Shown piece after piece: positions 3,001-12,000 of a DNA stretch of 17,107 bases; the first letter of the stretch is position 1, and every line of letters begins with the position of its first letter. Position numbers: made by a program. Origin of the DNA: Verrucomicrobiota bacterium (GTDB lineage: Bacteria > Verrucomicrobiota > Verrucomicrobiia > Opitutales > Cerasicoccaceae); NCBI GenBank assembly GCA_039818205.1, contig JBCBUK010000029.1, positions 1 through 17,107 on the forward strand, written 5' to 3'.

Positions 3001-6000
3001 GATTACCATTTTCCACGATACCGTGGGCACCGGCCCAACATGCTCCATGTGCCATTGTTCTGGAGCTGGGCTTTGAAAGTCATCCCACGGACGAAATTCT
3101 CATTGCTCCGCACACGCACACGCACCGGGTCGTGCTCTGGCTGATCAACGATCTCCGCCGTCAACCACTTCGGGTTCTTGTCGAAAACGCGGGCGACGCG
3201 CAGGGACAACGTGAGGGGGGGCTTTTTTTCGCCGTCGACAGAGCTAGGCTCGCCGTCAACGGCCTTAACGGGGTCCACCGGCACTACGCTGGCCGTTGAC
3301 TCACACAAGGAATCCGCGGGGGTTTTTTCCGCGGGGGACTCAACAGGGACTTCGTCGATCAACACGGTGGCTAGGACAGCTTGACCCGCTGGGGTCAACA
3401 TGATGACTCGATGCGACTTCTGCCAATGCGTTCCTTCTTCCAGGAGCTCCTTCCGCAGCTCACGAAGGGTGTCGCGAGTAATGCCAGTTCTCTCGGCAAA
3501 ATCCTGCTCGCTGATGGGTCGTGCGGCATTCTCCGCGGGTCCGATAGTTTCCTTAGTCATCCATTCCCCTTTTGTTGAAAAAATTTCTGAGGCTGGACCC
3601 ATCGCGGTCCTGGCACCCCCGTACCAACGAGCGCACCCCCTCCCCCCCCTCGAGGCGCAAAAACAGGTAAACATTTGACCACACAATCGGCTCTTTCTGA
3701 CGGCATCCTGACGCCAATATCGTCGCCAATTCGCAGCTTGCACCTGCACAACAACGACTTACAGAACTCGGACACTTGCTATTATAGCAACTGAAGGCCA
3801 ATTTATGCATCGGATTGCCCTTTCTCCTGGTCGGTTGAGTTCGAGCTGGCATCGATCGGAGATGGTTCGCCCTTTTTGTCTGGTTTGTTCTCCGCGCCCA
3901 ACCGGTCTACAGGCACGTCTTGAAAGTCTGCGTCAACCGTCGGTCCGTTGAGCTTCGCCAATGCATCGATCGCATCAACCAGTTGCTCACCGGATGATTC
4001 GAAGCGAGCGGTTGCACCACCCAGAAGCAACTCGCCCTTCTCGGTCGCAATCCCGGCCGCGATCATTAACTTCTGAATATCTGCGGTGCTTTCGATCTTG
4101 ATCTCGTCAATGGCTTCGGCAATGCGCTCAGCAATTGCCAAACCGTTCGCCCGGTGAAGCATGCCTAATGCTTTCTTTTCCGCTTCGATAAGCTCGGGTT
4201 TCTCGGCCAATGCAAGCTGCCATACAGCCTTCAGCGTATAGTGATGAACTGACTGTCCGAGAGCGCCCGAAACAAGCTTTTGAATCTGACGCCAAGTGAC
4301 GTTTTCACAACGCAGAGAAACAACCCCCTCAGCGAGCTTTGGATACAGGGCCTTAAATCGCTCGCCGGTGTAGCGACCTTCCTTTTCTTCCGGCGCAAAA
4401 AAATCGCCCCCCAATTCAAGGGCCGTTTGAGTCAACGCGGAATCATCGGACGGTGGCATATCAGCGGAGATTACGAAATTATATCTACGTGGTGATTATC
4501 GCAAAATTTGATAAATCCTGATAACGGAATGCGATACTCACCTCCAGGCAACCGCATGTAACCCTCGAACTCACCCTTCGGTATCCAATCTTGCGTAATG
4601 GTTTTCGGTGTCACACACAACGCCGCTGCAACTTGACTCGGCGTCAACATAAGCGGCAAGGCGCGTGGTCCCGTGCGGCGGCGCGGGGTTTCTTTATTTG
4701 CAGTTCTAGGCATCGTTGGCGGCCAATGTAGTCTTTGGCGATTCAAGGCGATCCTCCATGCGAGCAATGGCGCGCTGGTGTGCGGCTATGTCGCATAGAA
4801 GTTGCCCTCGTTGATCAAAGGGCGCTTTTTCCATTTCCAACTGGGTCTGCGTCAACCAGCGACGCCGATTTTCTAGATAAGCTCTAATCTCCATTGGTTT
4901 AAGCTCCGCGTTGGGTGTTGTGTGTGGACTAACAATCATGGTCTGCACCATCAATTAGGCGGGAAAAACTCTCATCCAGGCTAGCAAGACGGCGCTCTGT
5001 TGAGTGTCTTACTACTGATAGTCGAATCCAGGAAAAGACCCGGCAAATAGTTGCTACCGATAGCCCAACACTCACAAAAACGAGAATGACAATCACTAGC
5101 TGCGCGACCATAACTCCTCCTTTGGGAGTAAGACTCCCTTAACAGTTTCTAGGTGATGATTAAGCACTAGTGAAATGATCTGAGAGGCATCGATACCGGT
5201 TGCCGTCGATAGCTCGGCCAGTTCATCCCATTGGGCGCGCTCAAGCTGGATCGACCGGCGAACGCCGTCTTCGTAACGCTTGGTTCTAGGCATCGGGATT
5301 TCGAGTTGGAGCGGCGGCCAGGTCAAAAACTTCAACCTCTTCGTGCGCGCTTAGTTCTTGTTCCAATAGGCATTTTGCCAGTTCCTCTGGCGATCTACCC
5401 AGCTTCGCACTCGTCTCCTCAAGTTGACACATCAACTCGGGACTCAATTCAAAATCGATAGAATTGTTTTTCCGGTGCATTATTACACCGCTAAAGGTTC
5501 ATTAAAGAACCGTCAAATGAAAAATTGACTTTGCACCAAAAAAGCGCATTATCGGTGCATAAATGGGCAGAAAAGCACGATTCAACAATCCCAAGCGATT
5601 CTCACTTTCCCTCGAAAGCGAGATGCTTGAACGCCTAGACTCCCTTGCTCAGGAATACAGATTAGAGCGCAATCAGTTGATCGAGCGTTTACTAAAGCGA
5701 GCTCTTGACGAGCTCGGAAACGAGGACCCGTTCGAACTGACCTCGTCAGAATCCCAGGAGCTACTGACTAAGTTGAGCGGCAGAACATCATCCGCTAATG
5801 CCAAAAACCTTAGTGCATTGAATGGAATGGAGTCAGATTCGCTTCCCGGCAAATCAACGCCTTATGCCCCTTACATTCGACCAGGCGAAAGCAGCGAAGA
5901 ATTTTCCGAGCGATTCCGCAACGAAAACACGCCGGAAGAAGCGGCACTCATTTGGAGTGTGCCCGTTGAACGCGCCGCAAAGCTACTCAAATACAAGGTC

Positions 6001-9000: not shown

Positions 9001-12000
9001 CGTCGACCATTCTTTCAACGTAGCCAATCTGACTCACCGCTCCGACCCAGATGCGACCATCCGGTCCAAGTACTAGCGACATAACCGTGTTGCCGTGATC
9101 AATATCAACCACCTCGAAAGATTCACCATCGTAGAAAAGCAACCCATCATTACAGCCTATCCAGACGAAACCGTCTGAGTCCTCGATCGTCATACGCACA
9201 TCATCCAAGAAAGGATGATCCTCACCGTCGAATGTCTTGGCTAAATAATCTGCTATCAATTCAGAACCAAACAAACACAAGACCATATTAACGACCCACA
9301 GTCGGAAAAAGAAACGCATCTAACACCTCTACAAAAAATTGATCATAGGCATGATCCTTGGACCACACCGCCTCAAAACCCAAACCCAACAGACCATCCG
9401 CTTCACCGTCATGCGAAGTCAGTACAGCAAATCGGGGCATCTTCGGTATGCACGCTTCATCAAAAAAATACTTAGCCTTAAAGAAAAGACTACGCGCATC
9501 ATCCATGCCCAAACGGAAATCGGAAATAACCACGTCATATTGCCCATTTCGGACAAGGTCGACCGCATGATCGACCGTATAGCTCAAGTCAGGCGTTATC
9601 TCAAAGTTCCGCTTCAATAACAGCGCCACAAATTGCGCAAACTCCTTGCGGTCCTCTAAGATTAAAACATTCACGGCATAACGATGCGCCAATATCACGC
9701 CGTAATCACGCCTTCAAAACCCTCGAATTTGAGGGGGCATTATCATTGCCCCGTATCATCCTGTAAGCTACCGTCTCCGCGAGTTGTTTGGGGACGACTT
9801 ATCTTAAAATTACTTAACCCTCGGCTTTCGGGCCGGGGGTTATTCACAGCTACCCCACGCGCGCATACCAACCTTAATAAAGAAATTTTTATGCCCAATC
9901 TCCTCTGGAACGGTCCATCAACCATTCAAAGCCGAACATATACCTGCGGAAACTGCGGGACCTATATCTCATCAAATCAAGGGTATAGCGCATACCTACC
10001 CGGAAGCCCAATGCAGTATGAAGACGCAGCTATTGCGATTTGCCATAGGTGCGCTTTTCCTACTTTCTTGGGTGTCAACGGAGAGCAAGTTCCTGGCGCG
10101 CGCTATGGCAACGATGTGGCACACATTACTGATGAAAAAATCGAGCAGTTGTATCAAGAAGCCCGTGATGCTACCGGTTCCGGCTCCTACACATTAGCGG
10201 TTTTAGCCTGTAGAAAACTACTGATGCATATCGCGGTATCCAAAGGTGCAAAAAAAGGGGAATCGTTCGCACAATACGTAGATTATTTATCTGAAAACAA
10301 TTTTGTGCCACCAGGTGCTAAGCCGTGGGTTGATCACATAAGAAAGAAGGGGAACCAGGCAAATCACGAGATTGTATTGATGGAAAGAGAAGAAGCCGAA
10401 GATCTCATCACATTCATACATATGCTTCTTACAGTGATCTTTGAACTTCCAGGCACCATGCAAAGTAGATACCCTTCCACTGATTAGAACAAATAGATTT
10501 CCCGGGCTATTTGTATACAATAACCAGGGCCCGCGTCAGCTCTCGCGCATTCGAACTGTAGTAGTATTGGCTGTCCTTGGGCGCGTACGGCCCGTAACCA
10601 GGGCTCTGTGTAGAAAAGCCGCGGCCGATACTCTCTTTGCCCGCCAACACAATAGCGTCGCCGCCCATCTCCCGTGCCTCGGACTTAAGAGCGTCAATTG
10701 CTTCTTGGTCGTCAGTCCATTGCCCGATATCAGCCGATGCCTCCCCCACAATATCGAACTGGCGATCGATCAACTCAGGGGCGGGGTAAACGTCAATAGG
10801 ATAGTCTGCCGGTTTTGGCGGGCGCGCTTCGCCAAACTGTATGCTGTCAGAGTTCACGCACCCGACCAGGAGAAGCACCAGAAAAATTGAAGTATAAACT
10901 ATTTTCATGCCTTAACGATAACTGATCTCTATTTTTTTTCAAAATTAATTTAAAGTTTGTGTTGACAAACTTAAAACCCTGTGTTTATATAGCCCCATAC
11001 TCAACAAGAGTAGACCGCAGCCCGACGGATTCGGGCAAAATCAATAGATTGAAAAATGGCAAACAAGAACTCAAAGACCGACGCTTACCAAATCGTAACC
11101 GACCGCGTAATACAGCTAATGGAGCAAGGAACCTGCCCATGGCATCGACCATGGCACACCTTAAATGCCGCTCCAAAGAACTTTCACTCAGACCATCAGT
11201 ATAGTGGAATCAACTGGATACTGTTGAATGCATTGGGATTCGAAATCCCGTTTTTCATGACGTTCAAGCAGGTAAAGGATCGCAAAGGCAGCATCCGGAA
11301 AGGCTCAAAGGGGCTCCCAGTGGTTTACTGGAACTTTGTAAAGCGCATCGATGAAAGCGGTGAAGAAAAGAAGATCCCGTTCCTAAAAACCTACAAAGTA
11401 TTCAACTGCGCTGATATTGAAGGAATCGAATTCCCCTGCCCTGAGTTACCCTCCCGAGAATTCAATCCGATTGAAGCCGCCGAGAAAGTGATTCAAAACT
11501 GGAAGGACTGCCCACCGATCAAACATGGTTCCAACCGCGCATGCTACCACCCCGACGACGACAAAATTGCCATGCCCAACAAGAGCCGATTCAAGAGCGA
11601 CCAAGAATACTATTCGGTCATGTTTCACGAAATGGCCCACGCCACCGGTCACCGCTCCCGCTTGAAACGCCTAAAGCCAGCAACTTTCGGTTCGAAAAAC
11701 TACGGCAAGGAAGAATTGGTGGCCGAAATGACAAGCGCCTTCCTTTGTGCTCACTGCGGAATTGATAATTCGGTTATCGAGAATCAAGCCGCTTACCTGA
11801 AGTGCTGGATCAACACACTAAAAGGCGATCCTCGTTTGATTATTACGGCCGCAACAGCAGCTCAAAAAGCTGCCAACTATATTCTCAACAAGACGCCTGC
11901 AGACCAATCCACCCCAGCCCAGAACGATAGAACGGAACCTCGAACTGAACAACTAGATCTGTTCGCTGCCTAGAACGTCGAAACGGGGCTTGAGCCCCGT

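Follow-up and report, generated by a model that had tools for sequence, protein, structure and literature searches.

The window analysed here is a 17,107-nt stretch of contig JBCBUK010000029.1 of a marine verrucomicrobium (C29; assembly GCA_039818205.1, positions 1-17,107), and all coordinates are positions along this contig. It carries a four-part module, consisting of a conserved non-coding element, a receiver, a sensor kinase and a small peptide, which converges on a gene in the repressor position (Table 1). The gene order is tail genes, then a 38-nt half of a tRNA-Lys gene resembling attP, then the integrase. Host DNA does not flank C29. The host counterpart of the attP-like core is inside tRNA-Lys (C5:2252-2289), with a second, partial copy at C11:70304-70341.

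Table 1. Features of the phage locus on C29
Feature	Position	Strand	Basis and remarks
Repressor-position protein, 197 aa	5563..6156	+	RHH_1 E 8.1e-5; phrog_876 'transcriptional repressor' E 4.3e-4
Mosaic block common to C29 and C13 prophages	5845..6503		87% DNA identity over 660 nt (blastn against own genome)
39-aa peptide gene	6171..6290	-	ATG overlaps kinase stop codon by one base; homologous to host peptide
Membrane sensor histidine kinase, 1009 aa	6290..9319	-	HATPase_c E 2.7e-18; weak Reg_prop match; H-box LKHEVGEP
Single-domain CheY-like receiver	9288..9698	-	Start at 9698 or 9674; profile of three phage receivers
Conserved non-coding element	9726..9844	+	Directly upstream of receiver gene; three hairpins
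DUF4145 protein	9891..10487	+	Pfam DUF4145 1.3e-11; PADLOC PD-T7-4 E 5.6e-9
ArdC-like anti-restriction protein (ArdcN + zincin peptidase)	11056..11973	+	Domain matches
Tyrosine integrase	12563..13759	-	phrog_1 E 5.8e-16; Pfam Phage_integrase E 2.6e-5, below cut-off
attP-like core	13948..13985	+	38 nt identical to 5' half of host tRNA-Lys(UUU) gene (blastn + ARAGORN)

Related loci are found on C13, C1, C30 and C33 of the same genome. Integrases lie near the module on C29, C1 and C13, as had been described, that of C13 adjoining tRNA-Pro. The kinase and receiver pair sits between the integrase and the repressor-position gene in the three complete loci, and beside the latter in all five, which bears out the view that it is phage-owned. 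The DUF4145 protein, cargo between integrase and module, is by its sequence similar to the single-gene defence candidate PD-T7-4; the cargo between integrase and repressor further includes, on C13, a GDSL lipase and, on C1, an FxLYD protein. No relatives of these phages were found in any collection searched, and as the group is known from one genome only, comparison can draw on no more than five paralogous copies.

Components of the module

The C29 kinase has a hydrophobic signal or anchor (aa 4-23), a periplasmic sensor, a single transmembrane helix (aa 714-740), an H-box and a HATPase_c domain (aa 877-989). The H, N, G1, F and G2 boxes can all be read, and a fused receiver, Hpt or DNA-binding domain is absent. 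The paralogous kinases stand as previously described (identity to the C29 copy: C13 48.7%, C1 24.5%, C33 26%, C30 24%), and the kinase and receiver pairs are real. The sensor is of the Reg_prop/Y_Y_Y type: its profile matches the PDB entries 3v9f (6.8e-18) and 4a2l (3e-15), with a weak Pfam match to Reg_prop and no Pfam detection of Y_Y_Y. Divergence among the kinases is much greater than in their flanks. The C29 and C13 sensors are 45-49% identical, and outside the mosaic block, which extends from the repressor C-terminal domain over the peptide gene and takes in the last ~70 kinase codons, the two kinases share only 49% protein identity.

Complete paralogous pairs are present on C13 and C1, while the C33 kinase is cut off by a contig end. 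The kinases had been given as ~1000 or ~630 aa; the larger size holds (1009 aa), but the 630 aa of C30 are the tail of a longer frame that reaches the contig end and is interrupted by three in-frame stops, so that at least one copy of the module may be decaying. The kinase had been said to be usually followed by a receiver; only three of the five have a visible one, the other two loci being cut by contig ends.

With Pfam alone the C29 receiver is indeed below threshold (E 0.0024, 18.4 bits against a cut-off of 30.2). Its identity is nonetheless backed by a profile of the three phage receivers, which matches 49 PDB sequences (best 6e-7), almost all of them bearing the name of a receiver or CheY domain, and by an invariant acid pocket Asp, phospho-acceptor Asp, Ser/Thr and Lys. 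The receivers of C13 and C1 are 50% and 27.6% identical to that of C29, and the overlap between the receiver gene and the kinase gene is 32 nt on C29 and C13 and 22 nt on C1. Judged by the kinase boxes and the invariant receiver pocket, both components look competent.

The non-coding element shares 83-87% DNA identity with its counterparts on C1 and C13, where the adjacent receivers are 27-50% identical. Its last hairpin is GC-rich and has a run of T after it on the + strand, and the z-score of the fold is -2.5 on that strand and -1.35 on the other; a compensatory change is seen in only 1 of 35 predicted pairs, and no Rfam family matches. The element is a candidate small RNA, or else the operon's promoter/operator region.

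The repressor-position protein of C29 consists of an N-terminal ribbon-helix-helix, a linker and a C-terminal domain (aa ~95-197), with no S24 peptidase domain or HTH. An S24 repressor had been described as the neighbour of the module, with identities of 56-70%; this is correct for C13, C30 and C28 but not for C29. Residues 95-179 of the C29 protein are, at 97.6% identity, the tail of the C13 S24 repressor, and the C-terminal domain is common to all six repressor-position proteins of these phages, three of which lack S24. It adjoins the kinase module in all five loci, the sixth copy being at the contig end of C28, and a related prophage on C11 has neither the kinase nor this domain. Among 1.84 billion representatives its profile found only the six proteins of this genome and one spurious repeat protein. 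Structure searches gave only weak HTH-like leads, and the domain could be no more than a second one for DNA binding or oligomerisation.

The peptide gene and its host counterpart

A peptide gene of 39-57 aa lies directly 3' of the kinase gene in all five phage loci, its ATG overlapping the kinase stop codon on C29 and C13 and following it by 13-25 nt on C1, C30 and C33. The C29 peptide is 79% identical to a host copy, and among 40 codons there are 16 synonymous and 8 non-synonymous differences, a ratio that shows a real gene under purifying selection. Host and phage do not differ in the 52 nt around the start codon. Peptides of C29 and C13 are 79% identical to that of their own host, as against 36-53% to the peptides found in five sister genomes. 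In its core the peptide has a conserved Ser/Cys, set in a Pro-rich tail; the N-termini in this genus are only weakly hydrophobic, which does not account for export.

In the host, the 39-aa peptide gene is followed on C3 by a gene for a miniature YcaO-like enzyme (~300 aa) and stands opposite a hybrid kinase with a Reg_prop/Y_Y_Y sensor, then HK, REC and Hpt; a TonB-dependent receptor and a REC-GerE regulator are nearby. No other protein of the host resembles the sensor part of the phage kinases, in agreement with the preliminary description; all remaining host kinases align with the phage kinase only from about residue 700 onward. A peptide HMM matched all seven copies in this genome (E 6e-25 to 2e-20) and, within the order, found the peptide in 6 of 201 genomes, each time adjoining the kinase and the YcaO-like gene. 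The YcaO-like gene itself is present in 31 of the 401 genomes of the phylum that were searched. At 22 of the 29 loci other than its own a Reg_prop-type kinase N-terminus lies within 1.5 kb, and at ~20 of 29 a small ORF lies just upstream, many with N-termini that resemble Sec signals when judged by eye.

The assignment of the host enzyme as YcaO-like rests on weak scores. Its Pfam E-value of 5e-5 is just under the cut-off, a profile search against PDB sequences found nothing, and the structure model (pLDDT 55.9) has a best Foldseek E of 8e-3. In structural comparison YcaO proteins take all of the top 14 places (Z 8.9-5.6 over 192-219 residues), and in a protein atlas all 30 matches listed belong to YcaO-carrying sets, the third-nearest cluster being commonest in Bdellovibrionota. 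The gene is single in this genome and missing from all the phages, and no gene for an E1-like partner, dehydrogenase, protease or exporter was seen with the host cassette.

What the module may do

We favour, with a probability of roughly 0.45, the reading that the module is a phage-borne derivative of the host cassette of modified peptide and sensor kinase, without the YcaO-like enzyme, and that the phages may produce a peptide signal or sense one. We read the phages as having kept peptide and kinase and swapped the fused REC-Hpt for a separate single-domain receiver. The lysogen would make the phage peptide, which the single host YcaO-like enzyme would mature and which would reach the periplasm of neighbouring cells or of the same cell. 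There the propeller of the phage kinase would sense it, or the closely similar host peptide, and the kinase would phosphorylate the phage receiver, which has no DNA-binding domain and would act through protein contact on either the phage switch or a host phosphorelay. Gene content, order and overlaps, the homologies, the conserved host cassette and the purifying selection on the peptide are established here; the peptide as cue, its modification by the host enzyme and the output are steps that we infer. The phage switch is suggested as target by the module-specific C-terminal domain and by the three of six repressor-position proteins without a RecA-cleavable S24; these and adjacency are the only pointers towards it, the link to the lysis-lysogeny decision as such being presumed from position only.

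This derivation from the host cassette draws on the operon overlaps, the peptide in all five loci and its purifying selection, the sensor relationship, the conserved host cassette and its YcaO-like identity, the tracking of the host by the peptide, the competent components and the co-occurring C-terminal domain, as well as on peptide types that among the phages are congruent with the kinase groups: (C29, C13), (C1) and (C30, C33). Against it count the one-genome sample, the weak N-terminal hydrophobicity, the weak YcaO scores, the interrupted C30 kinase and a C-terminal domain with only weak HTH-like leads. Peptide and sensor also do not co-vary simply: the C29 and C13 peptides are identical although their sensors are not, and in the host a kinase of only ~25% identity goes with a peptide of 79%. 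Finally, structurally characterised Reg_prop/Y_Y_Y sensors bind glycans.

A glycan or other environmental cue was the version put forward previously; under it the peptide would be irrelevant to sensing. The propeller type stands, and its profile matches are to the periplasmic domains of Bacteroides hybrid sensors (3v9f and 4a2l), which are glycan sensors. A peptide cue fits better, because the sole host relative at the level of the sensor is the kinase of a cassette with peptide and YcaO-like enzyme and because each phage kinase carries its own copy of that peptide; peptide and sensor are linked in all five phage loci and in the host cassette across the order, and no glycan-utilisation genes adjoin any copy. 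We regard a glycan cue as improbable. A less remote alternative, though still unlikely, is lysogenic conversion, in which the cargo rewires the peptide circuit of the host with no input to the phage switch: the phage peptide would mimic or compete with that of the host, and the phage kinase and receiver would feed or drain the phosphate of the host Hpt-LuxR relay, changing host behaviour to the lysogen's benefit. The 79% identity of the peptides and the invariant start region would suit this, as would the phages' want of an Hpt or output domain beside a host with a REC-Hpt kinase and a REC-GerE regulator, and the other cargo in the same region (ArdC, the PD-T7-4-like gene, the lipase and the FxLYD protein). 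However, the phage receivers have no detectable similarity to host receiver domains (E 1e-3), and the module is constant among phages in which other cargo varies, always adjoining a repressor-position gene that itself bears a module-specific domain.

Detocs combines a cytoplasmic sensor kinase, a buffer receiver and a receiver-effector, and defence or superinfection exclusion on a similar two-component scaffold could be imagined from the neighbouring PD-T7-4-like and ArdC genes. PADLOC, as previously noted, matched none of the four kinases scanned and, weakly, one of three receivers (C1, PDC-M60B, E 3.1e-5). With no effector domain and a kinase that senses the periplasm rather than the cytoplasm, we think this slightly more improbable again than a glycan cue. 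The least probable account is that of an inert passenger, a decaying remnant of the host cassette picked up once and carried without function. It would explain the stops in the C30 kinase and the absence of the YcaO-like gene, but three full-length kinases stay open at 24-49% identity with catalytic motifs intact, the peptide is under purifying selection, and the gene overlaps are conserved.

Comparison with known systems

Signal transduction by a phage-encoded two-component system had been proposed as new; phage-borne sensing as such has precedents in arbitrium and in the agr genes of phage phiCDHM1 (PMC7790227). In arbitrium of Bacillus phages (AimP peptide, AimR receptor, AimX RNA) a small phage peptide lies beside its receptor in the lysogeny region, and both vary among phages (PMC7790227). 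The module resembles it in having adjacent peptide and receptor genes, phage-specific variants and a short non-coding element, here a candidate only. It differs in that the arbitrium receptor is a cytoplasmic TPR transcription factor, whereas here a histidine kinase in the membrane, its propeller sensor in the periplasm, is paired with a separate receiver; the host is a diderm, and the phage peptide has a host homologue that is tied to a YcaO-like enzyme.

The temperate Clostridioides difficile phage phiCDHM1 likewise has a host-derived peptide precursor and histidine kinase, and the account in PMC7790227 lists AgrD, AgrB and AgrC and no AgrA. As far as that account goes, it carries the processing enzyme AgrB and no response regulator, whereas here the receiver is present and the YcaO-like enzyme stays behind in the host. 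Neither the kinase family nor the peptide family of the module is related to agr.

With Bacteroides hybrid sensors (BT4663, PDB 4a2l/4a2m; 3v9f) the phage kinases share a periplasmic Reg_prop/Y_Y_Y sensor, one transmembrane helix and a histidine kinase core, at very low sequence identity; they lack the fused receiver and AraC-type output and are linked to a peptide gene instead of polysaccharide-utilisation loci. As in YcaO-dependent RiPP clusters (microcin B17 McbD, cyanobactin LynD/TruD, archaeal YcaO), the host has a short precursor-like peptide encoded immediately before a YcaO-fold protein; the Ser/Cys of the peptide core is conserved and lies in a Pro-rich tail. Unlike in those clusters, the host enzyme is only ~300 aa and below the Pfam cut-off, the cassette is wired to a sensor kinase, and the phages carry the peptide alone.

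Organisation of the prophage contig

C29, of which the window covers positions 1-17107, is a contig of 21,865 nt in a genome of 4.85 Mb that was assembled into 66 contigs. Phage DNA flanks the att-like core on both sides, so that C29 shows an attP arrangement and no integrated prophage; the order of tail genes, core and integrase corresponds either to an excised or circular arrangement or to a scaffold join across 98 N. The integrase that the preliminary description had placed beside the module on C13, another contig of this genome, is present next to a tRNA-Pro, though its score is weak. 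Exactly 77 bases are identical at the ends of three contigs (C29, C13 and C58). Such a match is typical of contigs that overlap in the assembly graph through a repeat common to the related prophages, and the prophage borders of the assembly are therefore unreliable.

The cargo in the slot between integrase and module differs from phage to phage: C1 has a secreted protein with an FxLYD domain there, and C13 a GDSL-like lipase. The DUF4145 protein of C29 has a match to PD-T7-4 among the PADLOC models (E 5.6e-9), which makes it a candidate for single-gene defence cargo. A longer annotated version of this ORF, starting at 9684, was rejected as an artefact that reads through a conserved non-coding element. 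A match to the type II hammerhead ribozyme (40.3 bits against the Rfam gathering score of 37) begins 3 nt past the stop of the ArdC-like gene.

Features of C29 and of related loci (window coordinates unless another contig or locus is named)
Feature	Position	Strand	Remark
Tail genes (J-like protein, DUF1833)	C29, past the window end	-	read right to left
Small unknown ORFs	C29, between the tail genes and the tRNA-Lys-like core		
attP-like core, 38 nt	13948-13985		5' half of host tRNA-Lys(UUU) gene, 100% identity; C5:2252-2325, C11:70304-70341
Tyrosine integrase	13759-12563	-	
Type II hammerhead match	11976-12040	+	
ArdC-like gene	11056-11973	+	cargo
DUF4145 gene	9891-10487	+	cargo
Conserved non-coding element	9726-9844		directly upstream of the receiver gene
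sigma70-like site	9767-9739	-	strand of the receiver
Receiver gene	9288-9698	-	module
Kinase gene	6290-9319	-	module
Peptide gene	6171-6290	-	module
Block shared with C13	5845-6503		87% DNA identity
RHH protein	5563-6156	+	repressor position
Early genes RHH_4, HTH_17, DUF5131	5480-1		
77 identical bases	1-77; C13 121327-121403; C58 1-77		contig ends
FxLYD-domain protein of C1	L003 9976-10764	-	cargo
GDSL-like lipase of C13	L002 6274-7275	+	cargo
Stops in the C30 kinase frame	L005 19150-19260		
C11 prophage	L080 (C11 22000-41999), 8796-12000		
Host cassette	L008 (C3 243000-260000)		
C54 copy of the host locus	L010 1-894		whole contig, 894 nt

Kinase, receiver and repressor-position protein

The histidine kinase reported for the window was borne out. 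The protein of 1009 aa carries a HATPase_c domain at aa 877-989 (E 2.7e-18), a weak Reg_prop match and an H-box-like segment. The N, G1, F and G2 boxes are readable in the catalytic core, with the motifs NLISNAIRH, DNGGGV and GLGLGLYLS. The H-box-like segment, LKHEVGEPINAA, which has no Pfam HisKA match, contains a histidine (H772) that is invariant in an alignment of five sequences. A profile of five kinases, one row of which is a host kinase, matched kinase cores in the PDB (best 3e-42), and by its catalytic ATP-binding domain the window protein would be a class I sensor histidine kinase. It has an N-terminal hydrophobic segment and one transmembrane segment at aa 714-740. In the sensor part Pfam finds Reg_prop at E 3.3e-5, while the same five-kinase profile matches 3v9f (6.8e-18) and 4a2l (3e-15), the periplasmic domains of Bacteroides hybrid sensors; the distant database matches of the sensor all carry PF07494/PF07495. 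The sensor is thus predicted to be a periplasmic double propeller with a Y_Y_Y domain. No Response_reg or HTH domain indicative of a fused receiver or AraC-type output was found in the kinase with Pfam, the receiver being a separate gene.

The previously reported paralogues and their identities were reproduced by tblastn. The kinase on C30 had been taken for a short form; it is actually the tail of a frame that reaches the contig end and contains three stops within about 20 codons. The neighbouring frame is open at these stops, which may reflect a frameshift pair or an assembly error. In the host, the sensor region of these kinases has a single counterpart by tblastn, the hybrid kinase of a cassette on the host contig C3; all other host kinases align from about residue 700 onward only.

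For the window receiver, described earlier as CheY-like, the Pfam score of 18.4 bits falls below the cut-off of 30.2, but a profile of the three phage copies and their invariant residues do fit this assignment. The C1 receiver passes the Response_reg threshold (34.7 against 30.2 bits). Among PDB sequences the three-receiver profile gave 49 matches, of which almost all bear the name of a receiver or CheY domain (best 6.2e-7), and the phosphorylation-site residues D8, D52, S87 and K106 are invariant in all three. The window protein is most simply classed, from its sequence, as a CheY-like receiver domain. Pairing of kinase and receiver holds for three of the five kinases; on C30 and C33 no receiver is visible because these contigs end inside the kinase gene. 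Having no output domain, the receiver must work by protein contacts or phosphotransfer.

The module always adjoins a gene in the position of a repressor, and six such proteins were compared (C29, C13, C1, C30, C33 and C28). The S24 repressor claimed for the window was not recovered: Pfam finds RHH_1 and no Peptidase_S24 in this protein. The proteins of C13, C30 and C28 do have the S24 domain, but those of C29, C1 and C33 lack it, so that half of the six have no autocleavage domain and would need to be inactivated by a route other than SOS. What the six have in common is a C-terminal domain of about 100 residues, preceded by differing DNA-binding heads, RHH or HTH, with or without S24. A profile of this domain found no copy outside the own genome among 201 genomes of the order, and among 1.84 billion protein representatives it matched the six own proteins and one repeat protein, which was judged spurious; its alignment found no relative in IMG/VR. 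An alignment of the S24 repressors gave eight distant Campylobacter S24 matches in genome_contigs, one distant match in IMG/VR and none in metagenome_contigs. The model of the C-terminal domain is helical (pLDDT 63.6). Its top Foldseek rows, weak ones, are HTH proteins, with nothing at E <= 1e-3, and all structural rows from the atlas lie below a TM-score of 0.52. Prediction of a complex between this domain (six-row alignment) and the receiver (three-row alignment) scored 0.00; it was run without controls and counts neither way. The domain may just as well serve oligomerisation or be a second module for DNA binding. A related prophage on C11 with an integrase and a repressor-position ORF of 243 aa lacks the kinase, the receiver and the peptide as well as the common C-terminal domain, and offers a natural module-free comparator.

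Directly upstream of the receiver gene, about 120 nt are 83-87% identical among C29, C1 and C13, while the receivers beside them are 27-50% identical. On the strand opposite the receiver this element forms three hairpins, the last with a GC-rich stem and a run of T behind it, and its fold has a z of -2.5 against -1.35 for the other strand. A compensatory change is seen in one of 35 pairs, the three copies offering too little variation for a test of pairing. The element is near no Rfam threshold and matches no family there, and its pattern had no match in IMG/VR or metagenome_contigs. One possible role is that of a divergent small RNA, by which the likeness to arbitrium would grow; another is that of promoter/operator of the receiver-kinase-peptide operon. 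A candidate sigma70-like site lies within it on the receiver strand; promoter and terminator counts between 5400 and 10000 do not exceed those of shuffles, and the repressor/cro intergenic region has one 8-mer in common with the region upstream of the receiver, as expected by chance.

At the other end of the module lies the block shared with C13 (blastn, own genome), inside which identity reaches 97.6% in the repressor C-terminal domain and 99% in the peptide gene, against a protein identity of 49% for the rest of the kinase. C28 ends within the matching block. With conserved flanks on either side, the module seems to be framed by recombination joints through which the phages would exchange sensor variants.

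The peptide gene and its host cassette

The preliminary observation is real, but it was incompletely described. It missed a small ORF of one family that lies directly 3' of each of the five phage kinases on the same strand. The peptides of C29 and C13 are identical proteins of 39 aa, that of C1 also has 39 aa, and those of C30 and C33 have 57. The peptide ATG overlaps the kinase stop codon in C29 and C13, and a gap of 13-25 nt separates them at the other loci. M1, K3, a YNxG motif, a Thr and a Pro are invariant in the alignment, and the Pro-rich tail has a Ser or Cys near its end. A seventh copy, 79% identical to the C29 peptide, is found on the host contig C3. Of the 40 codons compared between these two copies (39 residues and the stop), 16 show synonymous and 8 non-synonymous differences, and the ORF is therefore a true gene on which purifying selection acts. 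The 5' leader and first codons, 52 nt together, are invariant among C29, C13, C3 and C54. The C29/C13 peptide is 79% identical to that of its own host, closer than the 36-53% seen with the peptides of sister species. The N-termini in this genus are only weakly hydrophobic, which would not account for export of the peptide.

Behind the peptide gene on C3 comes a gene for a YcaO-like protein of 306 aa, and the peptide gene faces a divergent hybrid kinase of 1311 aa; a TonB-dependent receptor and a REC-GerE regulator come next. In the hybrid kinase a Reg_prop/Y_Y_Y sensor is joined to HisKA, HATPase_c and REC domains, and its C-terminal extension, to which Pfam gave no name, we read from the sequence as a probable Hpt. 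The small contig C54 is a diverged copy of the peptide and kinase-start part of this locus, with 84% nucleotide identity in the peptide gene. It ends in an inverted duplication of itself; a second locus, variation between strains and an artefact of assembly are all possible origins. As a variant copy of the host locus it was rejected as the missing N-terminus of a phage kinase.

The YcaO assignment of the 306-aa protein comes from several comparisons. Against Pfam YcaO it scores 23.2 bits (E 5.1e-5), the cut-off being 25.7. The 30 protein atlas matches listed all fall in sets that carry PF02624, in the top two at 47% of members. The AlphaFold model has low confidence (pLDDT 55.9); with it, YcaO enzymes fill the ten best Foldseek rows (best E 8e-3) and also the first 14 of VIA-align, where Z is 8.9-5.6 over 192-219 residues and unrelated rows reach at most Z 5.4 over about 60 residues. 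A sequence profile gave no match among PDB sequences.

The cassette was compared across loci L008, L024-L028 and L051-L079. A peptide HMM found the family, for which there is no Pfam or NCBIfam model, in 6 of 201 genomes of the order, namely the own genome, all four others of the genus and one of a neighbouring genus. In the five relatives the peptide gene lies just upstream of a YcaO-like orthologue (53-62% identical) and beside a hybrid kinase; the host homologue is thus, in six of six genomes of this genus/family group, a short ORF directly upstream of a YcaO-fold enzyme, as a RiPP precursor would be. The phage copies have no YcaO gene nearby, the genome's one YcaO-like gene being that on C3. 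More widely, the YcaO-like profile had matches in 31 of the 401 phylum genomes searched, every one a member of this order. At 22 of the 29 non-own loci a Reg_prop-type kinase N-terminus lies within the 1.5-kb flank, and about 20 of the 29 have an ORF of 45-75 aa ending within about 150 nt of the enzyme start, as judged by eye without statistical scoring; many of these small ORFs show, again by eye, Sec-signal-like N-termini and Cys/Ser/Thr-Pro-rich tails. The TonB receptor orthologue adjoins the cassette in two relatives (G002, G003), lies on other contigs in two more (G001, G005), and in another, G008, adjoins a second, weak peptide-like ORF.

The phage module has the kinase and peptide of the cassette but lacks any YcaO-like gene, and a separate receiver takes the place of the fused REC-Hpt.

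Interpretation and comparison with known systems

As this sensor type is linked to a small peptide in both host and phage, the peptide is most likely the cue or a co-regulator of the phage kinase, probably after modification by the host enzyme. The original interpretation holds in that the module is phage-owned and probably serves signalling, but the glycan-type cue proposed for it is probably wrong given the conserved linkage of sensor and peptide. How peptide and sensor correspond is less straightforward. The phage peptide types are congruent with the kinase groups (C29 and C13; C1; C30 and C33), yet C29 and C13 have one peptide in common while their sensors are 45-49% identical, and this argues against a simple matching of each peptide to its sensor. 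Likewise the host kinase is about 25% identical to the phage kinase despite the similar peptide. As for the output, the constant adjacency to the repressor-position gene, the common C-terminal domain, the module-free C11 prophage and the missing S24 domains point towards a phage switch without proving it.

The boldest reading of these data, to which we would give a chance of roughly one in four, is a private peptide channel of diderm temperate phages. Each phage type would supply its own precursor and a matching periplasmic kinase, the host's single YcaO-like enzyme would mature the signal, and the free receiver would act on a repressor with a dedicated docking domain, a route that could replace SOS induction where S24 is missing (3/6). 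Such a channel would be arbitrium-like, made from entirely different parts, and could also eavesdrop on the near-identical host peptide.

If this is true, a verrucomicrobial phage would own a complete phosphorelay front end, periplasmic kinase and receiver, with its own peptide, and phage peptide signalling would extend to diderm marine bacteria and to two-component chemistry. The five diverged copies in one cell would be a natural experiment on how the specificity of signal and receptor evolves, and the module offers a testable reason why some repressors have no RecA-cleavable domain. It also points to an apparently undescribed host system, conserved across one verrucomicrobial order, in which a small peptide and a propeller-type kinase accompany a miniature YcaO-like enzyme.

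Close relatives of the module's sensor are rare. Among 5.8 billion clustered proteins the only close relative of the sensor part (aa 1-760) is the own-genome paralogue, the other 13 matches being distant Reg_prop/Y_Y_Y proteins, and 41 related genomes contain only host-type hybrid kinases of about 1300 aa. With tblastn, 33 of 50,697 deposited phage records gave a partial match to the kinase, none covering 80%. Phage kinases as such are not new, since PHROGs has kinase families (phrog_857, phrog_10912). PADLOC defence models, Detocs-like ones included, matched none of four kinases, and among three phage receivers gave one weak match (C1, PDC-M60B, E 3.1e-5), which does not qualify the module as a defence system. 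Record-level literature searches, broader ones included, turned up nothing that describes a phage two-component pair accompanied by a peptide gene within a lysogeny module, and phrases for phage- or prophage-encoded histidine kinases or two-component systems returned only titles on a 'two-component cell lysis cassette'. The module would be one more form of phage-borne signalling, on genomic evidence from one genome.

To our knowledge, phage communication and eavesdropping have so far been found to use cytoplasmic receptors, in arbitrium of Bacillus phages and in the VqmA or LuxR homologues of Vibrio and other phages. With the Bacteroides HTCS the phage kinase has the sensor type in common, while it lacks their fused receiver and AraC-type output. 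The closest published systems are arbitrium and the agrD, agrB and agrC genes carried by the Clostridioides phage phiCDHM1 (both in PMC7790227). No AgrB family match was found in the window with Pfam or PHROGs, and AgrC is a multi-pass kinase, whereas the window kinase has one transmembrane segment behind a large periplasmic domain. None of the 28 window ORFs matches an AimR or TPR family (Pfam/PHROGs), and the likeness to AimR-AimP-AimX of arbitrium is one of function only.
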